Position numbers: made by a program. Shown here one piece after another: positions 23,601 through 29,600 of a stretch of DNA of 64,000 nucleotides. This DNA comes from Escherichia coli (GTDB taxonomy: Bacteria > Pseudomonadota > Gammaproteobacteria > Enterobacterales > Enterobacteriaceae), in the NCBI RefSeq assembly GCF_022846255.1, contig NZ_AP025682.1. One strand, 5' to 3'. The first letter of the stretch is position 1, and the number at the start of each line of letters is the position of its first letter.

Positions 23601-26600
23601 TGCCGCAAATCGCCAACTTGCCGATATTGCCACCAGGAAAGAACAGCGGGTCGATGACGTAGCTGTCGGTGGAGAACGCCAGACGGTCGCCTTCCGCTAC
23701 CAGCTGCGCCAGATCAAGACGGGCCTGATCTTCCTGCTCTGCCAGCCACGGGTTGGCAAAGGCTTCCATAAACAGGCTGTTGATTAATTGCTGCATCGCC
23801 TGGCCGCCGCTACCGTGGGCGAGTTGGATATTATTCACGCTTCACTCTCCTGCTGACGATACTGATACCACGCGGCGCACGCTCCTTCGGAGGAAACCAT
23901 CAGCGCACCAAACGCGGTTTGAGGATTACAGGTGTTACCAAACAGCGGGCATTGATGCGGCTTACATTTGCCCGTTAATACTTCTCCACAACGTGCGCGC
24001 GGGTCATCGCAGACCTGCTGCGGTGCCGGGCGGAAATGCGCTTCGGCATCGAATCGTTGATAATCCGGCGTCAGGTGTACACCAGAAGATTCAATCACGC
24101 CTAAGCCGCGCCATTCGCTGTCGCCGTTGACACAGAACACATCGGCAATCGCCTGTTGCGCCAGCAGGTTGCCGGCATCCGGCACCACCCGACGATACTG
24201 ATTCTCTACCTTGCTGTGGGCCGCTATTTTCTGCTCCACCAGCATGACCACGCCTTGCAGTAGATCAAGCGGTTCGAAACCAGCCACCACCAGCGGACGA
24301 TGAAAATCGCTGGCGATAAAATTATAGGCATCAGTGCCGATAACCATACTGACGTGGCCCGGCGCGAGGAACGCGTCGATACCGTTATCCGGCTGTTCCA
24401 GCAAACTGCGCAGCGTCGGGATAAGCGTAATGTGCTGGCAGAAGAAGTAAAAATTCTGCACATCGCGGGCTTTCGCCTGTTGCAGAGTGATGGCCGTCGT
24501 CGGCATGGTGGTTTCAAAACCTAAGCCGAAGAATACCACTTTACGGGTTGGATTCTCCTGCGCCAGTTTTAACGCATCCATTGGCGAGTAAACGATGCGC
24601 ACATCGGCACCGCGTGCTTTTGCCTGCAACAGCGACCCCTGTTTCCCTGGTACGCGCATGGCATCGCCAAAGGTACAGAAGATGACTTCCGGATGGCTGG
24701 CAATCTCCACGCAGGTGTCGATTCTACCCATCGGCAGTACACACACCGGGCAACCGGGACCGTGGATAAACTCGACGTTTTCCGGCAGCAACTGGTCGAG
24801 GCCGAATTTAAAAATGGCGTGGGTATGACCGCCACACACTTCCATAATCCGCAGAGGGCGTTCGGCGGTGTAAGAGAGATGTGAAGCACGTTCGCGCAGA
24901 TGCTCAATTAACTGCATCACCTGTTCCGGCGCGCGATATTCATCAACAAAACGCATTATTTTTCCTCGCCATACAACAGCGCACCGACATCCGGCTCAAC
25001 GTCAAACATGTTTTGTAAGGCGTCGAGAGTGTCGCGCGCTTCGGCTTCATTAATTACGCTCATGGCAAAGCCAACGTGAACCAGTACCCACTGGCCTACG
25101 CGTGGCTGACCGTTTTCATCGCAGCTGCCGACTAACGTTAAATCGACATCGCGCTGAATGCCGCAGACGTCGACTTTCGCCTGGTTGCCGTCAATGGTGC
25201 GGATCTGGCCGGGAACGCCTATGCACATCGCTGTGTCTCCAGCCAGTTCAGCCACTGGTCCATCCCTTCGCCGCTGGTGGCGGAAATAAGGATGATTTCA
25301 ATTTCTGGATTGACTTCGCGGGCGCAGGCGATGCACTTCTCAACGTCAAAGTTGAGATACGGCAGCAGGTCAACTTTGTTGAGCAGCATCAGTGAGGCGG
25401 CGGCAAACATATGTGGATATTTCAGCGGTTTGTCTTCACCTTCGGTAACGGAAAGCACCGCCACTTTGTGTTTTTCACCGAGATCGAAGCTCGCCGGACA
25501 TACGAGGTTGCCAACGTTTTCGATAAACAGAATACCGTTATCGTCCAGTGGCAGGCGCGGCGCGGCGTCGGCGATCATCTGTGCGTCAAGATGGCAGCCT
25601 TTACCGGTGTTCACCTGAATTGCTGGGGTGCCGGTAGCGCGAATGCGTGCGGCATCGTTCACGGTTTGCTGGTCACCTTCAATAACCGCGCACGGAACGC
25701 TGTCTTTCAGGCGCATTAAAGTTTCCGTCAGCAGGGTGGTTTTACCGGAACCAGGGCTGGAAACCAGGTTGAGCACCAGTTGCTTGCGGGCAGCAAAGCG
25801 CGCGCGGTTGCGTTCAGCCAGACGGTTATTTTTGTCCAGCACGTCAATTTCGACTTCCAGCATCCGACGCTGGCTCATGCCCGGCGCGTGAGTGCCCGCT
25901 TCGCCATGACCGTAATGCAGGTCGCCTTCTTCAGTCTGGCTGGGGGTAAATTCAGGCGCTTTAATGCCGGTGATTTTCATCTTCGGGCGTGCCGCCGGGG
26001 CAAATGGCGCGCTACGAAACGCGGAATGAGGGTTATGTTCATCACCCTCAATATAGAGGTTGCCTTCACCGCAACCGCATGTTGTACACATCGCTCACTC
26101 CTGGTCTATTTCTATCCGCCGAATCTGTAAACCGTCGTCTGCCACAATCTGTAGCATGTCACCATGACACAGTGGACAGCGGCGGACGCGCTGGGTCAGT
26201 AGCGTCACATACTGTTGGCATGTTTCACACCAGCATTCGGCCTCTTGTTCTTCGAGGTGCAGTTTACAACCTTCCGCCACGCTGCCGCGGCAAACCAGAT
26301 CAAAACAAAAGGCAAGAGAGCTGGTTTCGACACAAGAAAATGCGCCAATTTTGAGCCAGACCCCAGTTACGCGTTTTGCGCCGTGTTTTGCGGCCTGCTG
26401 TTCGATCAATTCCAGTGCCCGTTGGCAGAGGGTTATTTCGTGCATATCGCCTCCCATTAACTATTGCCAGCTACAAGCAATAATTGTGCCAGTGTTGATT
26501 ATCCCTGCGGTGAATAATGTCGATGATGTCGAAATGACACGTCGACACGGCGACGAAATTCATCTTTAGCTTAGAAATCGCTTTAATAACAATGAATTAA

Positions 26601-29600
26601 AAGTTGGCACAGAAAATGCTTAAAGCTGGCATCTCTGTTAAACGGGTAACCTGACAATGACTATTTGGGAAATAAGCGAGAAAGCCGATTACATCGCACA
26701 GCGGCATCGTCGCCTACAGGACCAGTGGCACATCTACTGCAATTCGCTGGTTCAGGGGATCACGTTATCGAAAGCGCGCCTGCATCACGCCATGAGCTGC
26801 GCGCCGGACAAAGAACTCTGTTTCGTCCTTTTTGAACATTTTCGCATTTACGTCACCCTGGCGGATGGCTTTAACAGCCACACCATCGAGTATTACGTCG
26901 AAACAAAAGATGGCGAAGACAAACAGCGGATTGCGCAGGCGCAGTTGAGCATTGACGGCATGATTGATGGCAAGGTCAACATCCGCGATCGCGAACAAGT
27001 TCTGGAACACTATCTCGAAAAAATCGCTGGCGTTTACGACAGCTTATATACCGCCATTGAAAACAATGTGCCGGTGAATTTAAGCCAACTGGTAAAGGGA
27101 CAAAGCCCGGTAGCATGAGCTGAGGCTTTGCTCGTTTTGCAGGCGTTACGCCTGTTTGGGGATGGGCGTGTCGATGAGTGTCGAAAATGACATTTCATCG
27201 GCATGTTTTCGTCAAAAATGACAATCACCTGAGGAATGCCTGGTGAATCGTTTTGTAATTGCTGACTCCACGCTCTGTATCGGCTGCCACACCTGTGAGG
27301 CCGCCTGTTCAGAGACGCATCGCCAGCACGGCCTGCAATCAATGCCGCGCCTGCGAGTGATGCTAAATGAAAAAGAATCTGCGCCGCAGCTCTGTCATCA
27401 CTGTGAAGATGCACCCTGCGCGGTGGTCTGCCCGGTTAACGCCATCACCCGCGTTGATGGGGCCGTGCAGTTGAATGAAAGCCTGTGCGTAAGCTGCAAA
27501 CTGTGTGGCATCGCCTGCCCGTTTGGCGCAATTGAATTTTCCGGCAGCCGTCCGCTGGATATTCCGGCAAACGCCAATACCCCGAAAGCGCCACCGGCAC
27601 CGCCTGCTCCGGCGCGTGTCAGCACATTGCTTGACTGGGTGCCAGGTATTCGCGCGATCGCCGTCAAATGTGACCTTTGTAGCTTTGATGAACAAGGTCC
27701 GGCCTGCGTGCGGATGTGCCCGACTAAAGCCCTGCATCTGGTGGATAACACCGATATCGCCCGCGTCAGCAAACGTAAGCGTGAGCTGACTTTTAACACG
27801 GACTTTGGCGATCTCACCTTGTTTCAGCAGGCTCAAAGTGGAGAGGCTAAATGAGCGCAATTTCCTTGATCAATAGTGGCGTGGCGTGGTTTGTCGCCGC
27901 CGCTGTTCTGGCATTTCTCTTTTCTTTTCAAAAAGCGCTAAGTGGCTGGATAGCCGGAATTGGCGGCGCGGTGGGTAGCCTGTATACGGCAGCCGCGGGC
28001 TTCACTGTGCTGACTGGCGCGGTTGGCGTGAGCGGTGCGCTGTCGCTGGTAAGCTACGATGTGCAAATCTCTCCGCTTAATGCGATTTGGCTGATTACAC
28101 TCGGCCTATGCGGTCTGTTTGTCAGCCTCTACAACATTGACTGGCATCGCCACGCGCAGGTGAAGTGCAACGGCTTGCAGATCAATATGTTGATGGCTGC
28201 CGCCGTCTGTGCCGTCATCGCCAGCAACCTCGGCATGTTCGTGGTAATGGCTGAAATTATGGCCTTGTGCGCGGTGTTCCTTACCAGCAACAGCAAAGAG
28301 GGCAAACTGTGGTTTGCGCTGGGGCGTCTTGGCACTCTGCTGCTGGCGATTGCCTGCTGGCTGCTGTGGCAGCGTTACGGTACGCTGGATCTGCGCCTGC
28401 TGGATATGCGTATGCAACAGCTGCCGCTCGGTTCCGATATCTGGCTGCTCGGTGTGATTGGCTTTGGCCTGCTGGCCGGGATTATTCCGCTGCACGGCTG
28501 GGTGCCACAGGCACATGCTAACTCCTCTGCGCCAGCTGCCGCGCTGTTTTCCACGGTAGTCATGAAAATTGGCCTGCTGGGCATTTTAACTCTGTCACTG
28601 CTGGGCGGTAATGCACCGCTGTGGTGGGGGATCGCACTGCTGGTACTCGGCATGATCACCGCATTCGTCGGCGGTCTGTATGCGCTGATGGAACATAATA
28701 TCCAACGTCTGCTGGCTTACCACACCCTGGAGAATATCGGCATTATCCTGCTGGGGCTGGGCGCTGGCGTAACGGGTATCGCGCTCGAACAACCGGCGCT
28801 GATTGCCCTTGGTCTGGTTGGTGGTCTGTACCATCTGATTAACCATAGCCTGTTCAAGAGCGTACTGTTCCTTGGTGCGGGGAGCGTCTGGTTCCGTACC
28901 GGTCATCGCGATATCGAAAAACTCGGTGGTATTGGCAAGAAAATGCCGGTTATCTCCATCGCCATGTTAGTCGGGCTGATGGCAATGGCTGCGCTGCCGC
29001 CGCTGAACGGTTTTGCCGGGGAATGGGTTATCTATCAATCCTTCTTCAAACTGAGCAATAGTGGCGCGTTTGTTGCCCGTCTTCTCGGGCCGCTGCTCGC
29101 CGTGGGGCTGGCAATTACCGGTGCGCTGGCGGTGATGTGTATGGCGAAAGTTTATGGCGTTACTTTCCTCGGCGCGCCGCGTACCAAAGAAGCCGAAAAC
29201 GCCACCTGTGCGCCGCTCCTGATGAGCGTAAGCGTAGTGGCACTGGCGATTTGCTGCGTAATTGGCGGTGTTGCTGCGCCGTGGCTGCTGCCGATGCTCT
29301 CTGCTGCTGTACCTCTGCCGCTGGAGCCTGCTAACACCACCGTTTCTCAACCAATGATCACGTTGCTGCTGATTGCCTGCCCGCTGCTGCCATTCATCAT
29401 TATGGCGATTTGCAAAGGCGATCGTTTGCCGTCGCGTTCCCGCGGCGCGGCCTGGGTGTGCGGCTACGACCATGAAAAATCAATGGTGATTACCGCTCAC
29501 GGTTTTGCCATGCCGGTGAAACAGGCGTTTGCGCCGGTGCTGAAACTGCGCAAATGGCTGAATCCGGTGTCGCTGGTGCCGGGCTGGCAGTGCGAGGGGA

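Follow-up and report, generated by a model that had tools for sequence, protein, structure and literature searches.

The 211-bp spacer between hypA and hycA is almost certainly the bidirectional control region of the E. coli formate regulon, carrying divergent sigma-54 promoters. The locus is long known and ordinary: the sigma-54 promoters of the hyc (hydrogenase-3) and hyp (hydrogenase-maturation) operons stand back to back around an FhlA site. For the two promoter motifs, position, orientation, statistical strength, deep conservation and identity with published sigma-54-bound sites are established by the evidence below. Coordinates refer to the window, the whole 64-kb stretch of E. coli DNA that was analysed (Table 1).

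Table 1 Genes, promoter motifs, predicted starts and candidate regulatory sites in the window
Feature	Position	Strand	Details
hypA CDS	26095..26445	-	116 aa; first gene of hypABCDE-fhlA
Predicted hyp transcription start	26465	-	20 nt upstream of hypA ATG
hyp operon sigma-54 promoter	26475..26492	-	CTGGCAC-aatta-TTGCTT; CTGGCACaattaTTGCTT at 26492..26475; minus strand of the interval, CTGGCACAATTATTGCTT; -24 GG 26490/26489, -12 GC 26478/26477
UAS-1, FhlA-type enhancer	26518..26544		TGTCG 26518-22, TGTCG 26527-31, GACA 26536-39, CGTCG 26540-44
IHF-like site	26587..26599	+	TAACAATGAATTA; 1 mismatch to consensus WATCAANNNNTTR
hyc operon sigma-54 promoter	26605..26620	+	TGGCAC-agaaa-ATGCT; TGGCACagaaaATGCT; plus strand of the interval, TGGCACAGAAAATGCT; -24 GG 26606/26607, -12 GC 26618/26619
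Predicted hyc transcription start	26631	+	26 nt upstream of hycA ATG
hycA CDS	26657..27118	+	153 aa; first gene of hycABCDEFGHI
UAS-2, distal FhlA-type enhancer	27169..27223		TGTCGATGAG-TGTCGAAAATGACA (27169-27192), CGTCAAAAATGACA (27210-27223)
hydN promoter (sigma-54)	38933-38948
norV sigma-54 motif	44601-44616	-

Locus and gene boundaries

A sequence-only reading had placed the region between hypA and hycA of E. coli, and genome matches and annotation bear this out. A 1.2-kb query from the region finds matches in 5,425 of 5,426 complete E. coli genomes, with at least 80% query coverage in 5,423, and hycA, hypA and hypB are annotated under it among the matches listed. The locus runs in the reverse orientation relative to K-12. 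Divergent hypA and hycA genes are present in all 80 enterobacterial loci retrieved, separated by a spacer of 188-223 bp. The left boundary given by the same reading (26458) is wrong: it relied on an upstream in-frame ATG at 26457, while the 116-aa RefSeq hypA begins at 26445. If hypA began at 26457, the longer ORF would enclose its invariant ribosome-binding site, GGAGGC (26449-26455). Since the hypA ATG is at 26445, the intergenic region spans 26446-26656, and its 211 bp equal the K-12 length.

Divergent sigma-54 promoters

Both GG-N10-GC elements lie exactly where the sequence-only reading had put them, each directed at its own gene, and they enclose 112 bp (26493-26604), close to the 110 bp it had estimated. 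The bare dinucleotide pattern is common, with 682 occurrences on both strands of the window, or about 2.2 in every 211 bp; each strand of the intergenic region carries exactly one. The extended motifs are far above chance. When the window is searched with TGGCAC-N5-TTGCW, only the hyp site matches perfectly; five sites have one mismatch, the hyc site among them. Using an RpoN matrix built from 186 promoters and printed in PMC7658346, we obtained 19.0 bits for hyp (rank 1) and 15.5 bits for hyc (rank 3) among ~128,000 positions in the window; mononucleotide shuffles gave means of 0.53 matches per window at 15 bits or above and 0.013 at 19 bits or above.

Conservation of both promoters is deep. 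The GG and GC dinucleotides and their 10-nt spacing are invariant in 81 of 81 enterobacterial sequences, as are TGGCA and TTATTGC at hyp and TGGCA and TGC at hyc, and across the whole set the matrix score is at least 15.3 for hyp and at least 13.9 for hyc. Between motif end and start codon there are 30-36 nt; across species, the distance from the -12 C to the ATG is 30-36 nt for hyp (with one outlier at 44) and 37-40 nt for hyc. Following Bonocora et al., we placed the predicted transcription starts 19 bp past the centre of each motif; they reproduce the distances to the start codon in Table 1 of that study (hyp 20, hyc 26).

Both motifs are published sigma-54 sites of K-12 and Salmonella, covered by ChIP-seq, ChIP-chip, gSELEX and microarray studies. 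The view that they offer confirmation rather than novelty was correct. Bonocora et al. 2015 report ChIP-seq peaks at OS28 (CTGGCACAATTATTGCT, hypA) and OS27 (TTGGCACAAAAAATGCT, hycA), with fold-above-threshold scores of 201 and 91 for the two sites, and flag both as 'experimentally confirmed in EcoCyc'; in published data the motif scores are conserved across genera. The motifs that Zhao et al. 2010 placed at -46..-29 (hyp) and -52..-35 (hyc) from the start codons map exactly onto 26491..26474 and 26605-26622. The hycA/hypA spacer was also recovered by in vitro gSELEX with RpoN holoenzyme (Shimada et al. 2021), and divergent NtrA/sigma-54-dependent hycA and hypA promoters in K-12 are attributed to Lutz, Boehm, Beier and Boeck (1990, Mol Microbiol 4:13), as cited in PMC3844500.

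FhlA-type enhancers and other signals around the promoters

The 112 bp between the promoters had been expected to contain FhlA sites. One conserved FhlA-type enhancer, UAS-1, is indeed present there, but it does not make up the full set: the FhlA-matrix matches with the highest scores and the best conservation lie 550-600 bp away in the hycA-hycB spacer. UAS-1 and an IHF-like site are the only conserved blocks between the promoters. UAS-1 gives the second-best FhlA matrix match in the window (TGTCGATGATGTCG, 26518-26531, 16.0 bits) and also holds TGTC-N5-GACA at 26527-26539, about -100 from the predicted hyc start. TGTC-N6-GACA-like sites are found ~100 bp upstream of hyc, whereas those nearest to hyp are at about -66 (UAS-1) and -730. 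The IHF-like site, present on sequence between UAS-1 and the hyc promoter, has conserved CAA and TTA cores, reads as a perfect AATCAATTAATTA in many species, and lies at a constant 16-17 nt from the hyc -24 GG throughout the set of 81 sequences. IHF is reportedly involved at hyc, in work of Hopper and colleagues from 1994.

UAS-2, in the hycA-hycB spacer, lies about 730 bp upstream of the predicted hyp start and about 565 bp downstream of the one predicted for hyc. Its matrix scores are 17.4 bits, the best in the window, and 12.2 bits; conservation of its cores reaches 90-100% among 78 unique sequences, and it contains an internal direct repeat (D1). Direct reading of the sequences shows that UAS-1 and UAS-2 have the words TGTCGATGA and TGTCGAAA in common; a MAFFT alignment of UAS-1 with both UAS-2 sites was misaligned and was discarded. 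The conservation of both blocks is consistent with function. The FhlA matrix derives from 13 characterised sites that probably include those found here, so high scores locate known sites and do not serve as an independent test of binding. The idealised FhlA 16-mer CATTTCGTACGAAATG (Leonhartsberger et al. 2000, as cited in PMC4987338) does not single out these sites. Its closest match across the two spacers carries five mismatches (27205-27220), no better than the window background, and the spacers hold only half-sites of it, CGAAATG at 26530.

The sequence-only reading implied that UAS-1 is a shared enhancer for hyc and hyp, in which case UAS-2 would be auxiliary or would serve hyc from downstream. 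UAS-1 is upstream of both promoters, and its flanks vary among species in steps of ~10-12 bp (44-46 or 55-57 nt on the hyp side; 48, 59-62 or 70-71 nt on the hyc side), so that its helical face would be kept relative to both. These indels represent few independent events, however, and in some of them a TGTCG repeat unit was gained or lost. The distance of 66 bp from hyp is also shorter than the ~70-150 bp described as typical of sigma-54 enhancers, and UAS-2 is the more strongly conserved of the two blocks and has no plus-direction promoter of its own to serve because the hycB start is only ~20 bp away. Work of Schlensog and colleagues from 1994 reportedly assigns hyp activation to a site between hycA and hycB, against a shared UAS-1, and we take UAS-2 to be that hyp enhancer. 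We consider a shared UAS-1 a possible but rather unlikely arrangement. From that literature and the geometry, UAS-2 most likely serves mainly the hyp promoter.

For FhlA and IHF occupancy, the exact starts and the pairing of enhancers with promoters, we infer the following scheme as the most likely. Sigma-54 RNA polymerase would form closed complexes on both -24/-12 elements, one pointing to hypABCDE-fhlA and the other to hycABCDEFGHI, and the opening of either would require the enhancer-binding ATPase FhlA. With formate present, FhlA would occupy the TGTC-N5/6-GACA-type sites in UAS-1; an IHF bend and DNA looping would then let it touch the hyc closed complex, which ATP hydrolysis by FhlA would convert to the open complex. 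The hyp promoter would be activated mainly from UAS-2. The last gene of hyp is fhlA and the first gene of hyc encodes the anti-activator HycA, so the two promoters would subject FhlA to both positive and negative feedback.

A third sigma-54 promoter or binding site could lie inside hycA (TGGCACatctaCTGCA, 26726-26741, plus strand), producing hyc transcripts that lack hycA or acting as a roadblock. At 15.1 bits this motif takes fourth place in the window, on a par with the hyc promoter, and it forms a 28-nt imperfect inverted repeat (I2) with the hyp promoter; sigma-54 commonly binds within genes in E. coli (Bonocora et al. 2015). It is spelled, however, by the codons Trp-His/Arg/Gln-x-Tyr-Cys: its -12 GC belongs to a Cys codon, TGC, for which other species freely use TGT, and its -24 flank varies with the His/Arg/Gln codon. 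It also has no separate ChIP-seq peak in Bonocora et al. 2015, although at ~120 bp from OS27 a peak might be unresolved. The synonymous-site variation led us to reject it as a conserved promoter; it looks like a by-product of Trp-His-x-Tyr-Cys codons, and a role for it in transcription is very improbable. If the site were real, holoenzyme bound there, with FhlA enhancers on both sides, could alter the ratio of HycA to the structural Hyc proteins.

That the two promoter motifs are chance matches, with the operons driven by sigma-70 promoters in the spacer, deserves practically no credence: bare GG-N10-GC is frequent and one weak sigma-70-like match occurs at 26457-26484, but full-motif scores far above shuffles, invariance across 81 sequences, and published sigma-54 occupancy and sigma-54-dependent expression refute it. 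A sigma-70 promoter scan of 26300-27300 gave that one weak match against 1.0 expected, with no competing promoter signal. A terminator scan of the same interval returned a 'terminator-like' hairpin, which is the CGTCG..CGACG palindrome adjoining UAS-1, and an Rfam search of 25900-27400 with E-values up to 1 matched no known RNA element.

The divergent sigma-54 architecture is already known and touches no open question. The value of the present analysis is in annotation, as it gives exact window coordinates for the two sigma-54 promoters and their predicted starts, for the IHF-like site, and for both the proximal and the distal enhancer. Deletion of hycA, as used in the engineering of hydrogen production, changes the distance of the hyp promoter to the conserved hycA-hycB enhancer.

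Comparison with known systems

The K-12 hycA/hypA region is the same locus with the same motifs. The hyp element is identical to OS28, whereas the hyc element differs from OS27 by one spacer base (G26612 in the window, A in K-12). The two spacers differ by four SNPs (26574, 26580, 26594 and 26612), all outside the conserved cores, and no substantial difference separates the two regions. The strain behind the window is an E. coli other than K-12, and the best matches listed, at 99.9% identity, include STEC299 and ABU 83972. Salmonella Typhimurium has the orthologous divergent pair, TGGCATGGAAAATGCTTA and TGGCATAAATATTGCTTT, which is sigma-54-bound by ChIP-chip and sigma-54-dependent in expression, 26-fold for hyc and 5.6-fold for hyp (Samuels et al. 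2013, PMC3844500); its elements have T in place of C at position six of the -24 element, and other spacer bases.

The fdhF, hydN-hypF and hyf promoters are likewise FhlA-activated and of the sigma-54 -24/-12 type, but each stands singly instead of in a divergent pair. The window also contains the hydN promoter, whose upstream region gives only weak FhlA-matrix matches of at most 6.9 bits. The norR-norVW region, present in the window as well, resembles hyp/hyc in having a sigma-54 promoter and upstream enhancers within a divergent spacer. It differs in that a sigma-54 site is listed for only one promoter of the divergent pair, against both at hyp/hyc, and in using a different activator, NorR, with the enhancer motif GT-N7-AC.

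The hyp/hyc locus and its divergent sigma-54 elements

The window carries the E. coli hyp/hyc locus in the orientation opposite to K-12, and the K-12 gene order agrees with this hyp/hyc context. A 1.2-kb query around the region matches 5,425 of 5,426 complete E. coli genomes at 95-100% identity, with at least 80% of the query covered in 5,423 complete genomes; hycA, hypA and hypB are annotated beneath the matches listed. The sequence-only reading had placed the intergenic region at 26458-26656. Its right end stands, but its left end derives from an upstream in-frame ATG at 26457. 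Because an invariant GGAGGC ribosome-binding site falls within that extension, hypA starts at 26445 and, with the hycA start at 26657, the intergenic region therefore begins at 26446. Relative to K-12, the window has four spacer differences (26574, 26580, 26594 and 26612) and none in the conserved cores.

Features of the hyp/hyc region in window coordinates (OS25, OS26 and IS31 are K-12 sigma-54 ChIP-seq sites named by Bonocora et al. 2015)
Feature	Position	Strand	Sequence or length	Remark
hypA	ATG at 26445	-	116 aa	
hypA ribosome-binding site	26449-26455		GGAGGC	invariant
hypA/hycA intergenic region	26446-26656		211 bp	length equal to K-12
hyp sigma-54 element	26475-26492	-	CTGGCACAATTATTGCTT	
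UAS-1 conserved block	26518-26544		TGTCGATGATGTCGAAATGACACGTCG	FhlA-type enhancer
UAS-1 parts	26518-26522; 26527-26531; 26536-26539; 26540-26544		TGTCG; TGTCG; inverted GACA; CGTCG	
IHF-like site	26587-26599		TAACAATGAATTA	one mismatch to WATCAANNNNTTR
hyc sigma-54 element	26605-26620	+	TGGCACAGAAAATGCT	
hycA	start 26657	+	153 aa	
UAS-2	27169-27223			FhlA-type cluster, hycA-hycB spacer
hycC site	29062-29077	+	TGGCGCGTTTGTTGCC	intragenic; IS31
hydN promoter	38933-38948	+	TGGCATGATTTGTGAA	OS26
norV promoter	44601-44616	-	TGGCACGCAATCTGCA	OS25

With both strands read, the two proposed GG-N10-GC elements are present at the positions claimed for them, each oriented toward its own gene (hypA, hycA), and the bracketed DNA, put at about 110 bp, measures 112 bp. 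The bare pattern occurs 682 times in the window (~2.2 per 211 bp), and the spacer holds exactly one copy on each strand. TGGCAC-N5-TTGCW is matched perfectly only once in 64 kb, by the hyp element; the hyc element departs from it at one position. When the whole window (~128,000 positions) was scanned with an RpoN matrix from 186 promoters, as printed in PMC7658346, the hyp element ranked first (19.0 bits) and the hyc element third (15.5 bits), with the norV promoter second and a motif within hycA fourth; shuffled windows gave on average 0.53 matches at 15 bits or more and 0.013 at 19 bits or more. From -24 to +1 (26465-26491 and 26605-26631), the two promoters form a 27-nt inverted repeat that is 78% complementary and reads TGGCACA..TGCTT..AGCTGGCA on either transcribed strand, AGCTGGCA around the predicted starts falling in poorly conserved columns of an 81-sequence alignment.

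The fourth-ranked match, TGGCACATCTACTGCA (26726-26741, plus strand), scores 15.1 bits, comparable to the hyc promoter. It overlaps the hycA codons Trp-His-Ile-Tyr-Cys and is spelled by Trp-His-x-Tyr-Cys; its -12 GC coincides with the Cys codon, and because this codon switches between TGC and TGT across 80 species, the GC is not selected for. The motif is most likely a coding by-product, with sigma-54 binding in E. coli itself a much less likely possibility.

Conservation across enterobacterial genera

A HycA scan with one genome per species gave 80 loci from Escherichia, Salmonella, Citrobacter, Enterobacter, Klebsiella, Kluyvera, Raoultella, Kosakonia and other genera, all 80 with divergent hypA and hycA and a spacer of 188-223 bp. 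Across the 81 distinct sequences of the spacer alignment, TGGCA (26491-26487) and TTATTGC (26483-26477) of hyp are invariant or nearly so, TGGCA (26605-26609) and TGC (26617-26619) of hyc are invariant, and the GG-to-GC spacing does not vary; in none of the 81 does the RpoN-matrix score fall below 15.3 (hyp strand) or 13.9 (hyc strand). Between the promoters only two other blocks are conserved, 26518-26544 and an A/T-rich segment at ~26587-26602. The hycA 5' leader (26632-26656, 26-nt, ..TCTCTGTTAAACGGGTAACCTGACA) is also unusually conserved across genera, mostly at 70-99% per column, and lacks a strong Shine-Dalgarno sequence.

Candidate enhancers and IHF-like site

The FhlA enhancer expected in the bracketed DNA appears as UAS-1, where TGTCGATGATGTCG is the second-best FhlA-matrix match in the window at 16.0 bits; the matrix comes from 13 characterised FhlA sites that probably include the UAS sites scored here, and its scores therefore locate known sites and are not an independent test of binding. 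An idealised 16-mer FhlA consensus (cited in PMC4987338) does not discriminate the UAS sites. The CGTCG of UAS-1 is TGTCG in most species. Directly after the UAS-1 core lies a CGTCG-ACACGG-CGACG palindrome (26540-26555). On the minus strand it was picked up as resembling a terminator, and it may represent an additional pair of FhlA half-sites. E. coli and E. albertii have the palindrome; Salmonella, Citrobacter sedlakii and Enterobacter cloacae retain only part of it, and the other genera in the alignment have lost it.

The IHF-like site has conserved CAA and TTA cores, is a perfect AATCAATTAATTA in many species and keeps a constant distance of 16-17 nt to the hyc -24 GG in 81/81 sequences. 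Hopper et al. reportedly described an IHF requirement at hyc in 1994, and the conserved motif fits such a role. On either side of UAS-1 the spacer length varies among species in ~10-12 bp steps (hyp -24 to GACA, 44-46 or 55-57 nt; GACA to hyc -24, 48, 59-62 or 70-71 nt), a minor observation matching the pattern expected from face-of-the-helix constraints under looping, although the independent indels are few and some are a TGTCG repeat unit gained or lost. Klebsiella and Raoultella (loci L034, L039, L051, L060 and relatives) have 12 bp inserted within UAS-1, GACGCCCCGGGGCTGTCATCGACATGTCG, offset by a deletion of ~10 bp further along, and the overall promoter-to-promoter distance remains within about one helical turn.

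UAS-2 contains the top FhlA-matrix match in the window, TGTCGAAAATGACA (27179-27192, 17.4 bits), and CGTCAAAAATGACA (27210-27223, 12.2 bits). It opens with words common to UAS-1, TGTCGATGA and then TGTCGAAA, and the conservation of its cores, 90-100% in 78 distinct sequences, exceeds that of UAS-1. Since the hycB start follows only ~20 bp beyond it, UAS-2 has no plus-direction promoter of its own; relative to the hyp promoter it is ~730 bp upstream. Schlensog, Lutz and Boeck are said to have reported in 1994 an FhlA footprint between hycA and hycB responsible for hyp activation; a full-text literature search found no published statement assigning hyp activation to this site. UAS-2 is probably a distal hyp enhancer. 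UAS-1, whose centre lies ~100 bp from the predicted hyc start and ~66 bp from the predicted hyp start, upstream of both, could instead act as an enhancer shared by the two promoters, a less likely reading. Scans for sigma-70 promoters and RNA elements supported neither as an alternative.

In the scheme that follows, FhlA and IHF occupancy, the exact starts and the assignment of enhancers to promoters are inferred or drawn from background knowledge. Sigma-54 holoenzyme would wait in closed complexes on both -24/-12 elements, formate-activated FhlA at the enhancers would reach them by looping and open them by ATP hydrolysis, and an IHF bend would assist hyc activation. The hyp operon has fhlA as its last gene, a positive loop, and the hyc operon has the anti-activator gene hycA as its first, a negative loop.

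Published evidence on the same promoters

In the portion of the Bonocora et al. 2015 table considered here (PMC4591121), CTGGCACAATTATTGCT is site OS28, a hypA ChIP-seq peak with the highest fold-above-threshold value (201), and TTGGCACAAAAAATGCT is OS27, a hycA peak with a value of 91; both are marked as EcoCyc experimentally confirmed promoters. The starts predicted there, 20 nt (hypA) and 26 nt (hycA) from the start codons, transfer to 26465 (minus) and 26631 (plus), and the supplement gives motif scores conserved across genera. Three other K-12 sites listed in that paper also occur in the window, at the norV and hydN promoters and within hycC. Motif positions reported by Zhao et al. 2010 (PMC2831329), -46 to -29 for hypA and -52 to -35 for hycA, fall exactly on the window motifs, and in vitro gSELEX with RpoN holoenzyme recovered the hycA/hypA spacer (Shimada et al. 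2021, PMC8743547). In Salmonella, ChIP-chip detected sigma-54 binding at hyc/hyp, with sigma-54-dependent expression of 26-fold for hyc and 5.6-fold for hyp (Samuels et al. 2013, PMC3844500). Motif positions, strength, conservation and identity with sigma-54-bound sites are established. PMC3844500 credits the original description to Lutz et al. 1990, 'Characterization of divergent NtrA-dependent promoters...'. The divergent promoters are real, correctly interpreted and already known: first described in 1990, they have since been confirmed by several genome-wide studies. The sequence-only reading had called them confirmation rather than novelty.
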